NCBI GenBank assembly: GCA_041640075.1
Contig: JBEQAY010000003.1
Span: 1 to 57,186, forward strand
Length of the DNA: 57,186 nucleotides
DNA from: Candidatus Nanohaloarchaea archaeon
GTDB taxonomy: Archaea; Nanohalarchaeota; Nanosalinia; Nanosalinales; Nanosalinaceae
Direction of reading: 5' to 3'
The first letter of the stretch is position 1. Every line of letters begins with the position of its first letter. Made by a program: the position numbers and the translations under genes. The notes under the pieces are model-generated. The model was not told where the DNA came from and did not search any database. It was given only the letters and a program-made list of their open reading frames with translations. This document shows, piece by piece, positions 7,619-17,854 of the stretch.

Positions 7619-8638
7619 GTGCCCCATTTCCATAATATCATTGAAGATGAGAGAGTACTGACCGCTGATTTCCTTCCCAACCGGATGGTTCACCGGGACT
7701 CCGAGAGACAGGAGATAGCGAACGCACTTAACCCAATACTGGAAGGCGGACAGCCCCGCACCACTCTTCTATACGGACCGCCGGGAACAGGAAAATCTAC
7801 CATGGCTGAGTATGTTGTGGAGAAGTTACGGGAGCATGATTCCTCCGTGATCTATGGATCTGTCAACTGCTGGAAGAATCCCTCCCGTTTCAAGGTTTAC
7901 TACGAACTCCTGCAGGACATGGGGCAGAGGATGATACACAGGACAGGAACGCCGACAGACGAGCTTGTTGAGATGTTCGAGGAAAAAGTTCGTTCACGTC
8001 CAGCCGTTGTTATACTTGACGAGGTAGACCAGATACAGGATGAGAAAATACTTTACGACATGGCGAGGTACACTAGAACCGGTCTGATCATGATAGCGAA
8101 CCAGTCAAACGTTTTCTACGACGTCGATGAAAGGATCAGATCGTCACTGAGCTCACGGAAAAACATCCGCTTCCAGGCATACACTACAGAAGAACTACTG
8201 GACATACTCAAGGACAGGAAAAAATGGGGGTTAAAACCAGAGACGATATCAACTGCGCAGCTGAAGAAGATCGCAGCGCGCTCAAACGGAGATGCACGTA
8301 TTGCCATAAACTCCCTGCGGATAGCAGCCGAGCAGGCAGAGGAACAGGACAGGGAGAAAATACTGGATGAAGACATAGACTCTGCCGTGCCGGAAGCGGT
8401 GAAGAACGACCACAGTGAGTCACTGGAAAAGCTTAACGACGATCAGAGAATCCTCTACGACATAATAAAACAGGAGGAAGATATCAAGCCTCGGGAACTC
8501 TACGACCGTTACCGTGAGGAAGCAGAGGAACCGAAAGTTGAGAGAACCTTGCGGAACTACCTGCGGAAGATGGAGAACTACCGGTTGATCGAATCAACAG
8601 GCAAAGGCACAGGTACGAAATACGAACTCCGGAAATAA
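7619..8638 (+). CDS. cdc6: Orc1/Cdc6 family replication initiator
   Basis: Walker A GPPGTGKS, VNC, Walker B VVILDEVD, GDARIAI sensor and C-terminal winged helix. Confidence 0.93.
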   Translation: MPHFHNIIEDERVLTADFLPNRMVHRDSERQEIANALNPILEGGQPRTTLLYGPPGTGKSTMAEYVVEKLREHDSSVIYGSVNCWKNPSRFKVYYELLQDMGQRMIHRTGTPTDELVEMFEEKVRSRPAVVILDEVDQIQDEKILYDMARYTRTGLIMIANQSNVFYDVDERIRSSLSSRKNIRFQAYTTEELLDILKDRKKWGLKPETISTAQLKKIAARSNGDARIAINSLRIAAEQAEEQDREKILDEDIDSAVPEAVKNDHSESLEKLNDDQRILYDIIKQEEDIKPRELYDRYREEAEEPKVERTLRNYLRKMENYRLIESTGKGTGTKYELRK

Positions 8639-8845
8639 ATTTTTGCCATCTTTCTGTGGTGACGTATCTATTTATGACGTGAGCGGTCATGTATACACAG
8701 GGGGAGAATTGAGAACGGGGGAGATGTTTTTGAGTCTCCGGAAAATTTCTGGGAAAAATCCGGGAGCTCAAGTGTTCAGTAGTCTTCTCTTCCCATCTAG
8801 GCTTCAAAATCTGTTATCAAAAAGCAAACGGAGGGGGTATTGTGT

Positions 8846-9232
8846 ATGATAGGTACAACTAGTTCAAGAGCTTTGATAAGTCCTGAGAATCAGGTCAGAG
8901 ATTCCAGGGAAAGCCGATTACATCGGAGAGCAATTTTAAGACTTGCAATGGCTTACGACCAGGCCGGGTACGATGTGAAAGCCGGTCACGTTGATAGGTT
9001 CGACTACCCGTGTAAGTACAACTTCATGAAGCCTGACCTAGTAGCGGAAAGGGATGGCGACAAAATTATCGTCGAAGTGGAGACGGAAAGCACCGTTGGA
9101 ACTGATAGGGACAGGAAACAGAGGAAAGTATTCAGTGAATGGGCAAAAGAAGGTGAAAACCGTGATTTCCGGCGAGAAACCGTTGTTACATCTATCGCGG
9201 AATTGCGGAACCGTCCGGACCGGTTTAAATAG
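8846..9232 (+). CDS. Small PD-(D/E)XK nuclease-like protein
   Basis: H...KPDLVAERDGDKIIVEVET fits a restriction-endonuclease-like catalytic motif. Confidence 0.55.
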   Translation: MIGTTSSRALISPENQVRDSRESRLHRRAILRLAMAYDQAGYDVKAGHVDRFDYPCKYNFMKPDLVAERDGDKIIVEVETESTVGTDRDRKQRKVFSEWAKEGENRDFRRETVVTSIAELRNRPDRFK

Positions 9233-9789: not shown

Positions 9790-11904
9790 ATGGGCCGCTT
9801 TAAGTCTCTGTTTGTGGTATTCCTGTCAGTTGTCCCTTTTTCATCCGGTCAGATTACCGGTGGAGGTACTTCCTCTGTAACGGGTCTGATGACGGATCTG
9901 CTTGGCCTTGATTTCTCCGAGCCCTATGTAACCCTTGGCTTTGCGGCGACCTTTGGGTTGATGTGGGCCTCGGTCTACGTGATCTTCAAGGTAGGTGTGA
10001 AGAAGATTGACTCTGGCTACGGTGGCAGGCGTTCAAACCCGTTTGGCGACGCGCTCGGGCTTACAGGTGATTCAAGAAATCTGCTTGCCGTACTTACGCT
10101 TCTGATCACTCTATCGATGGTTGGAACCGGGGCCTTCACCGGACTTATCCAGGGCTGGCAGTCACTGGTTATTCTTGCGTTCAGCTTCATGCTTCTGGCC
10201 GGACTGGCTTTTGTACTGCTTGGGGGCTCCGGAGCCGTCGTTGGGGGAACGGCTTATGTGACAGGAAAGTCAGCGAAGGTGGCCTCTGAAGGTGTTCAGG
10301 AGCTCCAGGAACAGGTTGACAGGATCAGATCCGAGGAGGAGACACTGGATGATATAGAGGGCGATATCGAGGATGAGGAGGAAGACGCTGAGAGACGTGA
10401 ACGCCGGGAAAGAGGATCCGGCTCGCGAGATGGCGATGATGGTTCCGGAAGCGGCAGAGGAGGATCAGGAGGAGACACGGGCAGAGGAGACGATTCCGGC
10501 ACCGGAAGGGACCATGGTGAAACTGATTCTGAGGAGAGAACTGACGCCGAGATCGCCGACATAGTCAGGAAGCTTGAGAAAGCCATCGAGATACTCGAGG
10601 ATATCGAGGGAAGACTTACTCGAGAACTTGCAGAGGAGTCTTCAAGGATAGACAGGCATCTCAGAGCCCTGGACAAGCTCAGGGAAGTCCTGGAGTCAGA
10701 TGATCCTCCTCACCGTGACGTCAGGAAGCTTATCGAGGAACTGAGAAGTGCTGGTCTGGAGAGTTCATCCGGGAAGGAGGAGTTCGACCGGTTCATCGAA
10801 GAGACCGGTGACTTACCGGATATACTTGAAAGAGAGACCGAGCTGGAGTCCTACTCTGAAAGACTGAGGGAGCTTGAGTCAGATCTTTCAACACTTGTTG
10901 CAGAGCTTGAACTCCTGACTGAAATCAGAGATATACTTGAAAGACTTTACGAAGAGCTTGAAGTAGCAGACAGGGAAGAGGACGTCCTGGAGAAACTTGT
11001 AGACCAGCTCGAGCATCTCAGAGGGCACAGGATGGAAGAGCTTGAGGAGGAAGTAGGTAAAAGCAGGGATGAGATCAAGGAGCTGGAGAATAGATTTAAC
11101 GAACTCAGGAAGTTCAACGAGAAGATAAAGGACCTGGTTGAGGTAAAGAAAGATGTAGAGGCCGATCATGGAGACCTGGCGGAACTGATTTCAAGGCTTG
11201 AGGAGATGGCAGAGCTTGTAGAGCAACTTCTCAGAGCCTCTGGCTCCGACTTCAGCACCTCAGAAGGTTTCTCCTTCTCTCCGGGAGCTGACAGCCCTGA
11301 AGGAAAGGACATAGAGGTTTCAGGGCTTGAAGAGGTTCTTGTAGTTGACTGCAGCCTTGAACCGGGCAGCCATACTTCCGGGAAGCCTTTCGAGTTCTAC
11401 TCCAGGTTCAGGCCTCTTGTAGGCGAGTTCACTCCTGTCATGCAGGGTTTCATCGCGGATCAGGAGCTTTACGAGTCAGAAAATATCGAAGAAGGTATGG
11501 GAAAGGTTTTCCAGAGGTTGAATCAGGAGATCAGCTCCAGGGCGACAGGTTCAGCCAGCGGACGCATATCGCTTACATCCCAGCTTTCAGGCCCTTCCTT
11601 CAGGTCTCATCTTGTCAACACTGTTTACATGGGTTTTCTGGTGCAGAACTTCTGGCTGTGGTACAGGTGGCATATAGCGGATGGATCAGACACGCCCCGT
11701 ATCGCGGCGAAAGCCGTTATCACGGAGTACTGTGAGAAGGTATCGGCAACACTGGTGTCTTACCGTACAGGTTCTGGTGATGTGCCTGCTGTACTGGTGA
11801 GTAGCCCTGGTTCTGACTTACTGCTGAGTCCTGTGACAGGAGACAGGATAGATGACTGGAGCTCTGAAGACCTCGGTGAGATGCTTTACAGGGTTGAAGA
11901 CTGA
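9790..11904 (+). CDS. Membrane-anchor module + helical carrier domain + unknown C-terminal domain (704 aa)
   Basis: Signal-like N-terminus, 3 TM helices and a Gly-rich segment paralogous to 13574..14374; Gly/Arg/Asp linker; coiled coil; ~220-aa globular C-terminus. Confidence 0.85.
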   Translation: MGRFKSLFVVFLSVVPFSSGQITGGGTSSVTGLMTDLLGLDFSEPYVTLGFAATFGLMWASVYVIFKVGVKKIDSGYGGRRSNPFGDALGLTGDSRNLLAVLTLLITLSMVGTGAFTGLIQGWQSLVILAFSFMLLAGLAFVLLGGSGAVVGGTAYVTGKSAKVASEGVQELQEQVDRIRSEEETLDDIEGDIEDEEEDAERRERRERGSGSRDGDDGSGSGRGGSGGDTGRGDDSGTGRDHGETDSEERTDAEIADIVRKLEKAIEILEDIEGRLTRELAEESSRIDRHLRALDKLREVLESDDPPHRDVRKLIEELRSAGLESSSGKEEFDRFIEETGDLPDILERETELESYSERLRELESDLSTLVAELELLTEIRDILERLYEELEVADREEDVLEKLVDQLEHLRGHRMEELEEEVGKSRDEIKELENRFNELRKFNEKIKDLVEVKKDVEADHGDLAELISRLEEMAELVEQLLRASGSDFSTSEGFSFSPGADSPEGKDIEVSGLEEVLVVDCSLEPGSHTSGKPFEFYSRFRPLVGEFTPVMQGFIADQELYESENIEEGMGKVFQRLNQEISSRATGSASGRISLTSQLSGPSFRSHLVNTVYMGFLVQNFWLWYRWHIADGSDTPRIAAKAVITEYCEKVSATLVSYRTGSGDVPAVLVSSPGSDLLLSPVTGDRIDDWSSEDLGEMLYRVED

Positions 11905-12013
11905 TTGAAATCGGCTAGATCTCCGGGAAAATCTGTTTTCAGGCTTTGAGGAACTGCTTCCAGTTAGATATAAAACGTTTAACACCCTTTTACCATAACT
12001 AGGTGACTACACA

Positions 12014-13480
12014 ATGGGAGATGAAGAGGTTGAGCAAAGCCTCGAAGAAGAGTTTTCCGACGCCTTCGATAGGGCTCGAGAGGAAGATGAAGAACAGAAT
12101 ACTGTACATCCTGCACAGCTCCGTGGTGGAGCAAAGGGTGGTGCAACTGTAAGAGATGAAGAAGATCTTTCTCGAGAAGCACAGGAGGCCGAGGGAGTAT
12201 ACGGTCAAAACCTGAAGAAACAGCATTCCCGCGCTGAATGGTGGGAAGATCTGGAGGACCAGCTGAGCGATACAGCCGGCCGAGAGAATCTGCCGGTGGT
12301 AAGCTTCCTGGCTGACGCACAGGCTACGGGAAAGGCATCGGTAGACAATGACTGGACTGTCGACTCCGCAGAGTACCTGACAGATGAAGAAGGAGAGGTA
12401 CTGGAGTTCGCAGAGGAAGGTCAGGACCTGATGAACTACTTCCAGACAGTCTCTGGAGATATTGACAGCCTATCCGAGGAAGTTTCTCTATTCACAGGAC
12501 TGATGGGAGAAGTCAAAGACGACCAGGAACAGTACGAGCAAGAAGTTGAAGAAGAGCTCCAGGAGCTTGAAGAAGAGAAAGAAGAGAGAATTGAAGAAGC
12601 AAGAAATGAATACGAGGAAGAACTTGAAGAAGCTGAAGAAGCCAAGAGCGACGAAGTCTCAAACCTGAAGAGTCAGGTCTCAAACCAGTCGCCTTCCGAC
12701 TTCGAGGACTCAAGCTACGAGGACTCGACGGACGCATGGAAGAGCGAATGGAGTGACATCCAGGGAGACTTCAAGGAGACAGAGGAAGAACTTGAAGAGG
12801 AAAGAGACGAGAAGATCGAGGAAGCAAGAAGCGAGTATGAGGAAGCAAGAGAGGAACTTGAAGAGGAAAGAGAGGAAAAACTTGCAGACTTCAAGGAACA
12901 GAGAAGAGAGCTTCGTGAACAGAAGCAGGTAGCAGTTGAGGACCGAGCTGACAGACTTGACGAGCTTGAAGGTGTTCACGTCGAATTCTCCAACGATGTC
13001 GTTGAGTACGTCGAGGAACAGGCTGAGGCGATCAAGGATATCGCTATCACACTTGGAAGTCTTGAGAACATGAATTCCGAGTACAGCGAGCACTCTGTCG
13101 CCGCTGACGACGATCTGCGTGGAAGCCTTGATCAAGATCAGCAGGCTGTCGCAGGAGAGATCGCTGAAGCAGCAAACTCCATGGCCCGCAGAGCACTTGA
13201 AAGGATCGACTACCTCGAGGAAGCGGTTACCGACTACGCACAGGCAACCGACGCGATTACAGACATGCTCGACGAGCAGGACGCAAGAGTCAGCACAAGA
13301 CTCGATGAAGTTACAGGCCTCTACGACGATCTCGGGATTGAGGTCGAAGGCGAGGACGAGTACGGCGTCGAAGCCCTGCGTGAAAGAGTCAGAGACCACG
13401 TTGAAGGTGCAACCGATCAGGACTACGATGCACTCGACGAGTTCAGGCAGGAGATCGAGTCAATGGCAAGGGCTCCGTAG
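12014..13480 (+). CDS. Hyper-acidic long coiled-coil protein (488 aa)
   Basis: Very E/D-rich with an internal repeat. Own TATA (ATATAAAA ~11969) and SD AGGTGA; strong C-ending codon bias. Confidence 0.85.
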   Translation: MGDEEVEQSLEEEFSDAFDRAREEDEEQNTVHPAQLRGGAKGGATVRDEEDLSREAQEAEGVYGQNLKKQHSRAEWWEDLEDQLSDTAGRENLPVVSFLADAQATGKASVDNDWTVDSAEYLTDEEGEVLEFAEEGQDLMNYFQTVSGDIDSLSEEVSLFTGLMGEVKDDQEQYEQEVEEELQELEEEKEERIEEARNEYEEELEEAEEAKSDEVSNLKSQVSNQSPSDFEDSSYEDSTDAWKSEWSDIQGDFKETEEELEEERDEKIEEARSEYEEAREELEEEREEKLADFKEQRRELREQKQVAVEDRADRLDELEGVHVEFSNDVVEYVEEQAEAIKDIAITLGSLENMNSEYSEHSVAADDDLRGSLDQDQQAVAGEIAEAANSMARRALERIDYLEEAVTDYAQATDAITDMLDEQDARVSTRLDEVTGLYDDLGIEVEGEDEYGVEALRERVRDHVEGATDQDYDALDEFRQEIESMARAP

Positions 13481-13497
13481 AGGAGTTCCTGTCACCA

Positions 13498-13518
13498 CAT
13501 TTCCCTTTCTTTTTTCCC
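13498..13518 (+). terminator. Pyrimidine/oligo-T archaeal terminator
   Basis: TTTCCCTTTCTTTTTTCCC shortly after the stop of 12014..13480. Confidence 0.5.
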
Positions 13519-13573
13519 AAGATGACTTCTGATTACTTAAACTCTTTTAACGGAGGAAACTAAATTTTCAGGC

Positions 13574-14374
13574 ATGGATCGAAGGCTGTTCCTTATATCA
13601 GTATTTCTTTCATACACGGCCTCTGCTTCAGCCCAGATAACTAGTGGGGGTTATGGAGGAACCAATTCTGTTACAGGGATGATCTCTCATCTACTGGGTA
13701 TCGATATCTACCAACCGTATAATATCCTCGGTATAACAGCCACTGTAGGCGTCCTCTGGGTCGCGACCTACGTCATATTCAAGGTCGGAATCAAGAAGAT
13801 AGACGAAGGACTGGAAAACGACGGACGTAGGAGCAGCGGCATTGCTGGAGCACTGGGAGTCGACGACGAAGAATCGAGTAACCTGCTAGCCGTACTCACA
13901 CTACTGATCGTACTGACGATGATCGGTACAGGAGCATTCATGGGCATAATCCGTGGATGGCAGTCACTTATCATACTTGCATTCACCTTTGCACTCCTCG
14001 CAGGACTGATCTTTGTCCTGGTAGGCGGAACAGGAGGAGTAATCGGAGGAACAGCCTACGTCACAGGTAAATCAGCACAGGTCACCGCAAAAGGAGTTAA
14101 CGAGCTGCAGGAAGCCGTGGATGAAATAGGCACCCGTGAAGAACGTGTAGAGGCAGAGGAGGAGACAGAGGAAGACGATATAGACCATGGAGACGAGGAT
14201 GAAGCTGATGAAGAAGCAGAAATTACAGCCGAGGAACTTGAACAGATCGTGGAGATGATAGACGACGTAGAGGATGAATTAAACGATCTGATAGACGAGC
14301 TGGAAGATGAGCTCGAAGAAGATCTTGAAAACGTGAGAAGACTTGTAGACCTTCTGGGAGATGAAGATGAGTGA
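13574..14374 (+). CDS. Stand-alone membrane-anchor module (paralog of the 9790 N-terminus) with acidic helical tail
   Basis: ASA|QITSGG signal-like site. Blocks YVIFKVG, NLLAVLTLLI, GWQSL and GGTAYVTGKSA are near-identical to the 704-aa protein. Confidence 0.85.
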   Translation: MDRRLFLISVFLSYTASASAQITSGGYGGTNSVTGMISHLLGIDIYQPYNILGITATVGVLWVATYVIFKVGIKKIDEGLENDGRRSSGIAGALGVDDEESSNLLAVLTLLIVLTMIGTGAFMGIIRGWQSLIILAFTFALLAGLIFVLVGGTGGVIGGTAYVTGKSAQVTAKGVNELQEAVDEIGTREERVEAEEETEEDDIDHGDEDEADEEAEITAEELEQIVEMIDDVEDELNDLIDELEDELEEDLENVRRLVDLLGDEDE

Positions 14375-15479
14375 AGCAGCGCGTTACACAGAGATCGTAC
14401 ATGAAGCAACCTCGAATGAGGAAACTGCCGAGGCACTCACATCCTTTGATACAGGAAAAGACGATCTGAAATCCTTCACAGAGTCAGGCGAAATACTGCT
14501 GACTGAATCACAGAGAGATTTTCTGGAGGGCTACCTAGATAACCTTGAATCGCTGCAGCCATGGACGGAGAAGATCAGAGCAGAGGAAGAGTCCGGAGCC
14601 AAGCAGGAAACCGTGAGAGAGATCAACCAGATCCTGAACAGACTTGAAAACGATATACAGCGTGCCGTAGACGAGGACCGGACTCTGGAGCAGATCGCAG
14701 CTACGCTACGCGACGGCAGATTAACAGAGGAAGCAGAGAAGATAATGGCAGGACTCGAGAGACCTGAAGCCAGGTTACAGAGACTGGCCGAGAAAAAAAG
14801 CCAGACCGAGGAGATGCTTCAGAAGTTTGAATCCGTGAGGGAACGGATCGGTGGAGACCACAGCATGGACTCAGCACTGAAGCACAGGAAAGCCGCGGTA
14901 GAGGCGGTACTTGAAAATTCAGAAACTGGCAGGGTTAGGGAAGACGGCCCAGTGAAAATACATATGACTGAAGAACTGATAGAGGAACTAGTAGATGCTG
15001 CAGAGAACTATGTCGAAGAAATATCGGGAATACTGATTTGCCGCAGAAGAGGTAGAGACTGGACCGTGCTTAAAGTTCTGAGAACTGGAGTTGGTACCGA
15101 AGGTTCTGTTTCACCTGACACTGCGAGGTTATCTGCCGCAAACGAACTGACAGAAAAATACTCAAAATACAGTCTCGTAGAGTTCCACACCCATTCAGCA
15201 GGCACAATAGCTAGACATGGAGAAGAATTTGCAGATGGCTGGTCTAAACAAGACATTGAAAATTTCAAAGACCAGGAGAAAGGATACGTGGGGATGCTAG
15301 TTACGCCAAAAAAGATTCTGACTAGAAGTAAAGGCGATTTTGAAGTTGAGACAAACAGGATAAAGAAAGGTAAAAGAGTAAATGAATGGAATAATGATCT
15401 GAAAGAAGAGTTTTCTGATATCAAATCCGGTCATAGCTTTTCAAAACTCCCAGAACTTACTCCTTTTAGTAAAAAGTAG
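14367..15479 (+). CDS. Helical carrier domain fused to a JAB/MPN+ (JAMM) metalloprotease domain
   Basis: C-terminal EEISGIL ... EFHTHS ... WSKQD matches E...HxH...SxxD. Overlaps the upstream stop codon. Confidence 0.8.
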   Translation: MSEAARYTEIVHEATSNEETAEALTSFDTGKDDLKSFTESGEILLTESQRDFLEGYLDNLESLQPWTEKIRAEEESGAKQETVREINQILNRLENDIQRAVDEDRTLEQIAATLRDGRLTEEAEKIMAGLERPEARLQRLAEKKSQTEEMLQKFESVRERIGGDHSMDSALKHRKAAVEAVLENSETGRVREDGPVKIHMTEELIEELVDAAENYVEEISGILICRRRGRDWTVLKVLRTGVGTEGSVSPDTARLSAANELTEKYSKYSLVEFHTHSAGTIARHGEEFADGWSKQDIENFKDQEKGYVGMLVTPKKILTRSKGDFEVETNRIKKGKRVNEWNNDLKEEFSDIKSGHSFSKLPELTPFSKK

Positions 15480-15481
15480 AA

Positions 15482-17854
15482 ATGAAAGATTACGACAACG
15501 CGGTCATGGCCCTGGCTTCAGGGATAGAGTCCACGCAAAGGAAGCTGAACAGGGATGAAAAGGTTTCGATAGCGGAGGAATTCCTGAAAAATGGGCCGGA
15601 GAACCACAGCAACTGGAACAACCTGGAGGTGAACCTGTCACAGGAAAGCATGGGAAACCTGCAGGAGTATCATGGAAATCTTCAGCAGGCCTACAGCGAG
15701 GAGATCGGGAAGGAGATCAAGCAAACCATGGAAAAAGTGGAGAAAGCCACTGATCTGAGGGAGAGACTTCACAGTGAATTGAATACTGCTCTCAACGAAA
15801 CAAAAGAGCTTGAGGAGATAGCAAAGCGGTTGCAGGACCGTGGTATAGGAAATGTAGCTGGTAAAGAAGAGAGACAGGTCCGGGAACTGGGCAAGAACCT
15901 GGAGAAACTGGATTCGAAAGGTGGAGACCTGGAAAAACTTGAGAACAGACTTGAATCTCTCCTGAACAGGCACAGCCTGGGTAAGGAGGATCTACATGAC
16001 GAACTGGGGAGGAGAGCCGAAGCAGTAGAGAAAATCCTGGACAGCGCCGCTTCAACCGGTGGAGACGGACAGAAGGACTTGGACCAGATCGCGAACAGGA
16101 TAATCCAGAAGGAATCAAAACTGCAGGAAGCTGAGAACCGAGGACTGCAGCAGCTTGAAGACGATATCAAAACCCTTTCAAGTATAGTGGAACTCGAGGA
16201 ACAGGAAATAACTGCTTTGAGACAGGTGGAAAAATATCTCCAGAACGGAAACTTCAGCCAGGTCTCCAGCACACTGGATAGTCTGATTCAGAGAAGAGAA
16301 AACTTTGGAGATCAGTCCAGAGCCGTGCAGCAGATAAAGCAGGATCTGCAGGAGGAAAAGAAGATCATAATTGCACTTCAGGAATTCTTCAACTCCATCA
16401 AACAACTTGAGAAAAAGGGGATTTCACGTGACAGACTCTACCAGAAGATGGAGAGCCAGGGAAGCTTTTCATCGGCACAGGAAGCCAGGGACTTCTTCAC
16501 AGGACTGGAATCAGAATTTGAAGGCATAGAGGAAGATATTGCAAGAGTGAAGAAACTTGAACAGAAGGAGAGAAAACTGGAGAACCTGGAACACGAGAAA
16601 CTGAAGGAAATCGATGACGAGGATGCCCAGCTCAGGCAGAGCGCCACAGGTCAGCAGAGAAGAGACCTGGAAGAGGTTCACGAGAAACTGAAGAAGCTGG
16701 GATTCAACCTTGAAAACGAGATAGATGATGACTCTGGGAACAGTAACTCAGGAACTTCATCCTCTGATAGAAAAGGACCTTACGGAGGGAAATATGGCAG
16801 GCCCTCTAGCTCAGAGCCTTGGATAATCTCAATGTCTGATGTAGAAAGCAACTACGGATACATGAAAGAAGCACTAGCTCTCTTGGAGAAGCATGGCTGG
16901 GATTCCATCGCGAAAGATACAGGTAGTGCTCTTGAATGGACTGGCGGGGATAAGTACAGGTTTATCCTTAACGGAGATCTCCTTGACAGAGGCGATCAGC
17001 CAGAAAAAGTGTGGAACAGCCTGTTCAACCTTGTGAGCACCTCTAATTTCGATCATCAGGTCGAGATGACGATGGGGAATCATGATGTGGCGTTACTTGT
17101 TCCTGGGAGTGCTGTTGCCCTGACTGATAGACCGCACTCCACCTGCGTCGGCGAAGGGCTAGAGAAGTTCTACTCTCTCGGCCAAATCGAATTCATGTTG
17201 CCTGGAAAAGAGCTTAACACAGATCTCTCAAATCTCAGCAGCGATGAAGTAGAGCAACTTCGAAGAGAACATTACAAAGCATACGACAACCTTGATTTCT
17301 CCGAAAAATACAAAGTACATAACAACTACAAACCCAGGAGAAAGGAAGAGTTCGCCAATCTTATCCAGAACGGGAACGTGAAAATGATAGCGGAAGGGTA
17401 CGAATACTATTACGTTCATGGAGGATCTGTAAATAATCCTGGAGCAAGTAAGGGAGGTGAAACCTACCAGGAGTACTTCAACAGAATGCTGATCGAGAAG
17501 GTCGCTGAACCTATCCTTGATGACATAGCCAACGGTACTAGAGCAAATGAGATGCAGATCCGAAGAGATATTCACAGTGAAAACGGCTCATTCGGACCAA
17601 TGTTTGGTTCCGGAAGAAGTGACGGAGGGCTGATCTGGCGGAACTGGGAGAACATACCTGAAAGCGCCGGGAAACAGGTAACCGGGCATACAGGAGGAGA
17701 CTACCCTCGAACCATGAACAGTGGTCAACTGATCAACGAAAACACGCACACGTCCGGGGGTGGAGGAAATCCCTCTATAGTCATTGAGACTCCTGAAGGA
17801 GTCTTTGCCTTAAGCAGTGAGGAAGATAAACCTATAGATCTGGTTGGGTACTGA
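15482..17854 (+). CDS. Helical carrier/coiled coil fused to a PPP/calcineurin-like metallophosphoesterase
   Basis: SDVESN, GDLLDRG, GNHD, HGG and GHT motifs after a Ser/Gly-rich linker; ~415-aa coiled-coil N-terminus. Confidence 0.85.
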   Translation: MKDYDNAVMALASGIESTQRKLNRDEKVSIAEEFLKNGPENHSNWNNLEVNLSQESMGNLQEYHGNLQQAYSEEIGKEIKQTMEKVEKATDLRERLHSELNTALNETKELEEIAKRLQDRGIGNVAGKEERQVRELGKNLEKLDSKGGDLEKLENRLESLLNRHSLGKEDLHDELGRRAEAVEKILDSAASTGGDGQKDLDQIANRIIQKESKLQEAENRGLQQLEDDIKTLSSIVELEEQEITALRQVEKYLQNGNFSQVSSTLDSLIQRRENFGDQSRAVQQIKQDLQEEKKIIIALQEFFNSIKQLEKKGISRDRLYQKMESQGSFSSAQEARDFFTGLESEFEGIEEDIARVKKLEQKERKLENLEHEKLKEIDDEDAQLRQSATGQQRRDLEEVHEKLKKLGFNLENEIDDDSGNSNSGTSSSDRKGPYGGKYGRPSSSEPWIISMSDVESNYGYMKEALALLEKHGWDSIAKDTGSALEWTGGDKYRFILNGDLLDRGDQPEKVWNSLFNLVSTSNFDHQVEMTMGNHDVALLVPGSAVALTDRPHSTCVGEGLEKFYSLGQIEFMLPGKELNTDLSNLSSDEVEQLRREHYKAYDNLDFSEKYKVHNNYKPRRKEEFANLIQNGNVKMIAEGYEYYYVHGGSVNNPGASKGGETYQEYFNRMLIEKVAEPILDDIANGTRANEMQIRRDIHSENGSFGPMFGSGRSDGGLIWRNWENIPESAGKQVTGHTGGDYPRTMNSGQLINENTHTSGGGGNPSIVIETPEGVFALSSEEDKPIDLVGY

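Follow-up and report, generated by a model that had tools for sequence, protein, structure and literature searches.

A candidate membrane-docking system for exchangeable enzymes in Candidatus Nanosalina and its relatives

We analysed a 57,186-nucleotide (nt) stretch of chromosomal DNA (contig JBEQAY010000003.1, hereafter the window) from a Candidatus Nanosalina genome of 58 contigs and 0.98 Mb that is 89% complete. At positions 9790-17854 the window holds five co-oriented genes, g1 to g5, all on the + strand, as an earlier note made from the letters of this DNA had stated. The locus very probably combines a membrane anchor, a common carrier domain and interchangeable C-terminal enzyme heads, and we propose that it would act as a docking system for swappable enzymes, specific to Candidatus Nanosalina and the lineages closest to it. 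In the split form, the anchor is encoded by g3 (13574-14374; 266 amino acids, aa) and the carrier proteins by g4 (14361/14367-15479; 372/370 aa) and g5 (15482-17854; 790 aa), and g1 (9790-11904; 704 aa) would be the whole machine in a single polypeptide, comprising anchor, tail, carrier and head. This division into a fused and a split form, which the earlier note had drawn by eye, agreed with the anchor and carrier profiles described below, and protein P0078 provided a second fused form.

The start of g4 overlaps the stop of g3, and g4 is separated from g5 by 2 nt, a packing that resembles a translationally coupled operon. When the junction sequence was inspected, 14367 appeared to be a likelier start of g4 than 14361, and the database copy of the protein, P0032, has 370 aa. 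No immunity-like open reading frame (ORF) is interspersed among the five genes, as had been noticed before, and in genomes G000, G057 and G058 the + strand has no ORF between the heads or behind them.

A specific carrier domain with interchangeable heads

The carrier occupies aa 349-487 of g1 (10834..11250; in cis, identified with hhalign and hmmsearch), aa 1-190 of g4 (14361..14930; all-alpha, nine helices, from alignment A2 and a structural model) and aa 1-192 of g5 (15482..16057; from BLASTP to g4 and A2). Over 152 aa, the N-termini of g4 and g5 are 28% identical, with an E value of 1e-5 in composition-adjusted BLASTP, and their similarity is thus significant after that adjustment. The pairwise likeness of g1 and g4 is weak (E 0.012 in a different register and 0.067 in the collinear one), and a profile of 11 carrier sequences matched aa 349-487 of g1 with a probability of 93.7 and an E value of 1.9e-7 (hhalign), in the very register in which the earlier note had aligned this part of g1 with the N-termini of g4 and g5. 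In A2, an alignment of eleven N-termini from six genomes at 20-30% identity, residues Y58, L95, A102, E105, L109 and R176 are invariant. Among the 3306 stop-to-stop ORFs of the same genome, g1 ranked third with the carrier profile (hmmsearch, E 2.8e-4) and the next ORF stood at 0.24; g2, SMC-like and other coiled-coil ORFs of this genome did not score.

We then considered the distribution of the domain. Against 1,835,955,588 representative proteins, the carrier profile gave 45 matches at E<=1e-3 and 39 at E<=1e-10, and the anchor-fused g1 type (P0076) was recovered at E 6.5e-13. The domain begins within the first 9 residues in 35 of the best 38 rows, in proteins of 142-1071 aa; the exceptions are P0075 (a 142-aa fragment, matched at 3-142), P0063 (a fragment) and P0066 (matched at 28-183). 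With 45 matches in 1.84 billion proteins, the carrier is too selective for a generic coiled coil, and by these sequence comparisons it is a real, specific and narrow domain of about 190 aa. Of the five other genomes in the genus, four contain it; beyond the genus it was found on two short contigs of genome G050 only.

These two G050 contigs, C54 and C55 (L009, L019, L053 and L054), are 3 kb each and are binned to another genus. Their carriers are 73-93% identical to that of g5 in the window, and their HELMH-motif gene is 100% and 93% identical to a protein whose source is named Nanohaloarchaea archaeon H01, which points to mis-binning or recent transfer. Weaker carrier matches outside the genus (E 2e-4 to 9e-3) mostly proved to be other than the carrier domain; L013 is an SMC protein, and L010 was set with it on their common C-terminal end alone.

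AlphaFold2 predicts an all-helical carrier made of nine helices, with a predicted local distance difference test score (pLDDT) of 79.3 and a predicted template-modelling score (pTM) of 0.60. A Foldseek search of the PDB with this model returned 0 matches at E<=1e-3. The best neighbours (HlyB/D, AhlC, LegC3-N, YaxA and MakA) lie at E 0.044-0.2 with template-modelling scores of <=0.40 and were rejected as generic long-helix likeness.

Behind this constant N-terminus, carrier proteins bear at least seven unrelated heads, namely a PPP-type phosphatase, a RamC_N-type domain, a JAB domain, two HExxH families, a transglutaminase-like domain and the unassigned domain of g1. We grouped 52 C-termini according to their final 170 residues, 46 from database proteins (including g4 and g5 of the window) and 6 from genomes, with one chimeric ORF that spans a run of N left out. 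The clusters obtained were PPP/Metallophos (15 members), RamC_N-like (10), HELMH motif (9), JAB-like (8), a second HExxH family (HERQH/HEFTH ... DEGAA; 4), g1-type (4), the transglutaminase-like P0065 (1) and P0064, also with RamC_N (1). The idea of a modular architecture with interchangeable cargo, and the expectation that homologues differ in their C-termini, were thereby borne out.

The junction between carrier and head is sharp. In 30-residue windows, g4 and P0033 are 90-100% identical through aa 180 and then drop to 0-23%, the former continuing into a JAB head and the latter into a HELMH head; this fall from near-identity to background at the carrier/head junction argues for head swapping. 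Likewise, g5 and G050a, encoded on a 3-kb contig (L009), share 70-93% identity to aa 240 and 33-66% at aa 240-420, after which the heads are unrelated (PPP versus RamC_N). The pairs of heads at operon positions 4 and 5 also vary among loci, being JAB plus PPP in G000 and G057, JAB plus lyase in G058 and G056, and HELMH plus lyase in L053 and L054. Among metagenome contigs that match the window at >=85% likeness, one from run X2 connects 14920 with 15482, passing over the 561 nt of the JAB cassette, and in run X3 two contigs carry EDLFPG-stop, the C-terminus of the HELMH type, directly before 15482. Bins left uncovered in these runs are uninformative where no contig spans them (for example g1 in X2 and most of the stretch in X4), and low-side joints in X4 were disregarded. 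These data indicated that recombination at the junction of carrier and head exchanges the heads as cassettes. Within the operon, a JAB or HExxH-peptidase head occupies position 4, and a PPP-phosphatase or RamC_N-type phospho-Ser/Thr lyase head occupies position 5.

In genome G056, L028:6598-8262 reads as a 555-aa ORF that is a chimera across a run of N, joining a carrier plus RamC_N gene to the end of a carrier plus JAB gene.

The membrane anchor and its predicted docking of the carrier

The anchor part of g1 comprises aa 1-185 (9790..10344), with a signal-peptide-like start and three transmembrane helices (BLASTP to its paralogue g3, hydropathy), followed by an acidic, Gly-rich linker and a helical hairpin at aa 186-348 (10345..10833) that aligns with the g3 tail (hhalign). 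g3 and g1 are 61% identical over aa 1-185 (E 4e-59), where the BLASTP alignment ends. A profile of 29 stand-alone anchors (A4) covers g1 aa 1-310, including the tail hairpin, with a probability of 100 and an E value of 3.8e-65, a score that comes mostly from the transmembrane part. The claim that g3 is a free-standing copy of the first ~305 aa of g1 was therefore supported, by BLASTP to residue 185 and by the transmembrane-dominated profile to residue 310.

According to the alignment, hydropathy and charge count, g3 aa 1-164 (13574..14065) consist of a signal-peptide-like start ending ASA|QIT, an exposed segment of ~29 residues without Lys or Arg, the first transmembrane helix, a loop with four Lys/Arg, the second helix, a 5-residue loop and a long Gly-rich third helix that bears a GxxxGxxxG zipper at aa 151. 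The remainder (aa 165-266, 14066..14374) is an acidic tail of 100 residues, 47 of them acidic, which is predicted to be cytoplasmic. From the four hydrophobic segments and the positive-inside rule, the tail would face the cytoplasm irrespective of cleavage at the first of these segments. The 29 stand-alone anchors have in common a terminal hairpin and the end LLGE-D; in g3 this conserved hairpin lies at aa 215-264 (14216-14365). We thus envisage an anchor that would be inserted by a Sec-type signal, with three transmembrane helices, the last of them a glycine zipper, and an acidic hairpin on the cytoplasmic side.

g3 has 31 database relatives, one of which carries the source name 'gas vesicle protein', and the anchor reached the cut-off of no Pfam or NCBIfam family. 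A weak match was to DUF948 (PF06103) on g1 aa 126-186, with E 9.8e-4 and 19.7 bits against a cut-off of 37.2. Like small membrane proteins of the DUF948/YtxH kind, the anchor has a transmembrane helix, then a stretch rich in Gly and then a helical tail; unlike them, it has a signal peptide and three transmembrane helices and is confined to one nanohaloarchaeal family. The anchor domain was detected in 14 of 70 genomes of the phylum, belonging to 6 of 32 genera and all to that one family, and in all five other genomes of the genus. At window positions 13641-13730, which encode the exposed N-segment of g3, otherwise matching contigs of two metagenome runs hold 85 unlike letters instead, and this outward-facing segment may diverge faster than the remainder of the anchor.

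Anchor and carrier are linked in gene order. In all six loci with upstream sequence (G000, G058, G057, G059 and two in G056), a co-oriented carrier block begins directly after an anchor gene or an anchor remnant, one of the G056 loci having the remnant only; in the three-gene loci a second carrier gene follows the first. The two parts are also fused, in g1, G058_693, P0076 and P0077 and, with a RamC_N head, in P0078, and the carrier stands behind the anchor at about 280-480 in P0076, P0077 and P0078. Such fusions argue that anchor and carrier act together. P0078, a 656-aa anchor-carrier-lyase protein, is lysine-rich and not acidic, a composition from which the system may also exist in a relative without high intracellular salt.

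When the g3 tail (aa 160-266) was modelled together with the g4 carrier, the interface score ipSAE was 0.77, 0.66 and 0.67 (median 0.67), against 0.00 for the best of three controls; that mark is attained by 116 of 157 solved complexes and by 2 of 215 mismatched pairs. The runs share at least 53% of contacts, and the pLDDT of the partner is at least 73. In the predicted interface, tail residues 215-264 lie against carrier residues that include the invariant Y58 and R176 and also L173, which varies little; on the anchor side, L260 and L261, likewise nearly invariant, take part. The complex model that had been suggested for anchor tail and carrier thus yielded an interface, and we consider it probable, on these models, that the g3 tail hairpin docks the carrier. 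Soluble carriers would bind the anchor hairpin through their private helical N-terminal domain of ~190 aa and would thereby be kept at the inner face of the symbiont membrane.

Paralogous anchors with a long tail were found elsewhere. A third anchor paralogue of 582 aa lies on contig C1 of G000 (L064:1-17000), with counterparts at L061, L062 and L063, in a cluster whose gene order is identical in four genomes of three genera. This cluster contains a T2SSE ATPase, FlaC-like coiled coils, two small transmembrane proteins and Ig-like surface proteins, together with a 795-aa acidic coiled-coil protein and a 192-aa transmembrane protein; in G044, a gene for a RimK-like ATP-grasp protein (L062:7022-8065) is located between the small transmembrane genes and two tandem long-tail anchors. 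T2SSE exceeded the cut-off in 4 of 4 loci examined and T2SSF stayed below it in one; no T2SSE ATPase or T2SSF platform is encoded within the window. The paralogues tie the anchor family, and not the 9790-17854 locus directly, to an envelope machine.

Identity and possible targets of the heads

The head of g5 (aa 431-790, 16772..17854) is a PPP-type metallophosphoesterase, with PF00149 Metallophos over its gathering cut-off (27.8 bits versus 21.5, E 4e-6) and the motifs GDLLDRG and GNHD, both of which appear in the family alignment. An extra coiled-coil spacer (aa 193-430, 16058..16771), common to long RamC_N-type relatives, precedes it. The alignment of the g5 head to a PPP-fold tyrosine phosphatase of Shewanella is at motif level and not significant (E 0.19). 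The head of g4 (aa 192-372, 14934..15479) is JAB/JAMM-like and forms a cassette that can be replaced, its breakpoints lying close to 14920 and 15482. E28/E29, H85, H87, S88, S104 and D107 are invariant in all four sequences, with a 16-residue spacer in the pattern E..HTHS..S..D. An atlas search placed 17 of 30 matches in the Prok-JAB set with a top score of 0.93, which we treat as leads only; the JAB-head profile had 0 matches among PDB sequences, and the HELMH head (P0033) had no meaningful PDB sequence match. The head of g1 (aa 488-704, 11251..11904) is conserved in a 4-member family, confined in this data set to four of the anchor-fused proteins. It has no Pfam match, no usable ESM atlas match and nothing below E 0.11 among PDB sequences, and its AlphaFold2 model (pLDDT 43.2) is unusable. 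Of the three differing cargos proposed earlier, the PPP phosphatase was confirmed, the JAB assignment held for the motif and fell short of the Pfam cut-off, and the g1 head remains without assignment.

Of 42 relatives scanned with Pfam, 12 had a Metallophos match and 8, including P0064, a RamC_N match; in P0065, Transglut_core scored 22.6 bits against a cut-off of 23. RamC_N was over the cut-off in 4 of 4 genome copies. The best PDB sequence neighbours of the RamC_N heads are class III lanthionine synthetases at a non-significant E of about 0.7, and the motifs QGWKIH and K..TIYP are common to these heads and to LanKC lyase domains. We take the RamC_N family (PF25816) to be the lyase domain of class III lanthionine synthetases.

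The genetic context of the symbiont bears on the question of substrates. No ThiF/E1 match over the cut-off was found in 6 of 6 Nanosalina genomes, including a closed one-contig genome of 1.05 Mb, in a search in which 14 of 14 control genomes were positive (11 over the cut-off), and a single ThiS match falls inside a 536-aa ORF. With no E1 detected, the symbiont shows no conjugation system that the JAB head could oppose. A ubiquitin-like activating system is known in haloarchaea (PMC4895103). Each Nanosalina genome also has 3-4 Pkinase-like matches at 14-34 bits, presumably Bud32/RIO-type kinases.

We infer that the heads are active enzymes with host proteins as their targets: docked at the membrane, they would erase modifications from, or cleave, host proteins accessible at the contact zone between symbiont and haloarchaeal host membrane. 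Docked enzymes that cut proteins or strip modifications, probably directed at the host, rank first among the readings considered, and a self-directed membrane hub ranks second. Taken by itself, the assignment of the heads to host targets is possible and tentative; the entire reading, in which architecture, docking and host-directed role are blended, stands in the balance. Several points weigh against it. Tail and heads are predicted in the symbiont cytoplasm, and the carriers have neither signal peptide nor transmembrane helix and no visible route to a host. The Pkinase-like genes of the symbiont could supply self substrates for phosphatase and lyase. Docking is expressed as model confidence, with a tail pLDDT of 54-62 and shallow own alignments, and its controls were unrelated natural proteins and not other coiled coils. 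As for the heads, Prok-JAB stays below the cut-off in the g4 family (3 of 4 members match at E<=10, the best with 20.1 bits versus 25), and PPP motif I is altered to S-D-(V/I)-E-S, that is D-x-E for D-x-H, as read in g5, G057 and P0055. P0068 and P0073 have lost GD and GNH, and in the second HExxH family the Glu is missing from the G059 copy; by their sequences these three are possible pseudoenzymes. Finally, the X2 contig joint was seen at 85% likeness in a metagenome with a shorter side of 46 letters, and metagenome joints below 95% likeness need caution.

The main competitor is a hub in which anchored proteases and phospho-erasers regulate or clear membrane-proximal proteins of the symbiont itself, such as a type IV filament-like machine or transporters. 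It agrees with the cytoplasmic topology and the absence of an export signal on the carriers, with the symbiont's own Pkinase-like genes, with the paralogous anchors in the T2SSE ATPase cluster and with the absence of immunity genes. However, cassette swapping between near-identical loci is rare for housekeeping regulators, and no E1 was found for the JAB head to oppose. Such patchiness is likewise rare for regulators of that kind: the g1 form and the syntenic g2 each occur in 1 of the 5 other Nanosalina genomes, in both cases G058. We regard a self-directed hub as somewhat unlikely. The proposal of effector delivery to the host, made in the earlier note, goes beyond what the sequence shows: the heads are predicted in the symbiont's own cytoplasm and have no export signal, and 'effector' is an interpretation; the alternative given there, a membrane-tethered cytoplasmic scaffold, matches the predicted topology.

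The remaining explanations are less probable still. An anti-viral module, in which the anchor would be a membrane sensor that recruits variable effectors and shuts the cell down on infection, is improbable. Defence systems typically combine a constant adaptor with variable effectors, and PADLOC returned weak matches, the best being the C-terminal part of LeoBC (Eleos/dynamin-like) on g3 aa 117-261 with 26.8 bits and E 6.7e-7. Yet this match may reflect transmembrane plus acidic-helix composition alone, and those to ZorA, LmuB and JetC fall on coiled coils; none of them amounts to a match with a PADLOC system. Moreover, the heads are other than the usual nucleases, NADases and pore formers, Pfam and NCBIfam scans found no NTPase or sensor domain in the cluster, and phage and plasmid collections held no match to g4 or g3. 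Competition between nanohaloarchaeal strains by polymorphic toxins of the LXG/Rhs kind would explain the conserved N-terminus, the sharp breakpoint and the variable C-terminus, but none of the heads is followed by an immunity gene, secretion signals are absent and the heads are not classic lethal toxins; such a role is very improbable. As for a chance resemblance of acidic coiled coils with no system behind it, the weak pairwise similarity of g1 and g4 and the acidic, helical nature of all the proteins would fit it. It is refuted by the small number of library matches, the unscored coiled-coil ORFs and the invariant residues, and is scarcely credible.

The neighbourhood of the system is as follows. 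g2 (12014-13480; 488 aa), a partner of g1 by synteny, encodes a very acidic coiled coil (33% D+E) without a transmembrane helix, to which Pfam and NCBIfam scans assigned no family; its syntenic copy in G058 is 53% identical, and relatives of ~400 aa occur in 4 other genera. We suppose that it may be a coiled-coil companion of the fused machine. The flanking genes are housekeeping ones (LysRS, GatA/GatB, FtsZ, ABC transporters and peptidase M3). Directly upstream of g1, at 7619-9232, lie genes for an Orc1/Cdc6 AAA+ protein and an AHJR-like nuclease, which mark an origin region or else the border of an integrated element.

Known systems and biological meaning

Pfam, NCBIfam, PADLOC, the PDB and the literature yielded no described counterpart of the system, in line with its designation as undescribed. 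Full-text literature searches returned no paper that links effectors of this sort, lyases or polymorphic toxins to nanohaloarchaea; Makarova et al. 2019 (mBio 10:e00715-19), which lay outside the coverage, could list the family.

Polymorphic toxins such as those of LXG type VII secretion systems (T7SS), Rhs and contact-dependent inhibition have a constant N-terminal module and varied C-terminal heads, and T7SS are bacterial. The locus resembles them in its constant N-terminus, unrelated C-terminal enzymes and sharp recombination junction. It differs in having no immunity genes and no secretion signal, in belonging to an archaeal DPANN symbiont, in an N-module whose predicted binding partner is the cytoplasmic tail of a dedicated anchor in the membrane, and in heads that would cut proteins or erase modifications and not kill. 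No LXG, Rhs or PT-type trafficking domain was detected when the proteins of the window and 58 relatives were scanned with Pfam.

The head repertoire, with phospho-lyase, phosphatase, Zn-peptidases, isopeptidase-like JAB and a transglutaminase-like head, is reminiscent of host-manipulating type III effectors of bacterial pathogens, such as the phosphothreonine lyases OspF/SpvC (PMC13151050). Unlike these, the locus lacks an injectisome, as well as any N-terminal signal of their kind for secretion or chaperone binding; in contrast to OspF, the lyase heads match the lanthipeptide-synthetase branch (PF25816), and none lies within this window.

In cohesin-dockerin cellulosomes, an anchored scaffold holds many enzymes that carry a matching docking module. 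The likeness is a functional analogy, in that a single type of anchored docking site would serve diverse enzymes with a matching module. The predicted complex of the locus differs in facing the cytoplasm, in being helical, in the unrelated families and in one docking site per anchor.

If the host-directed reading were carried to its full extent, the locus would represent the first platform dedicated to host manipulation in an archaeal symbiont. Its anchors would gather at the contact site, where glycine zippers may form or line a cytoplasmic bridge, and strain-variable heads would strip ubiquitin-like small archaeal modifier protein (SAMP) and phosphate marks from host proteins, or cut these proteins, disarming host proteolysis and signalling, with the diversity of heads as the outcome of an arms race. 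We consider this extended picture unlikely. A 2024 nanohaloarchaeon study describes the proteins that form or catalyse cytoplasmic bridges as unknown (PMC11291902).

Taken together, these results describe a lineage-specific combination of anchor, carrier and exchangeable heads with conserved synteny, a predicted binding of tail and carrier on the cytoplasmic side, and enzymes that would act at the membrane. For the question of how DPANN archaea grip their hosts, the locus offers a concrete candidate set consisting of a private anchor, a private docking domain and strain-variable enzymes. Even if the targets were the symbiont's own proteins, a new predicted pair of docking domains without Pfam or PDB counterpart would stand, as would a clean natural case of enzyme-cassette exchange in archaea.

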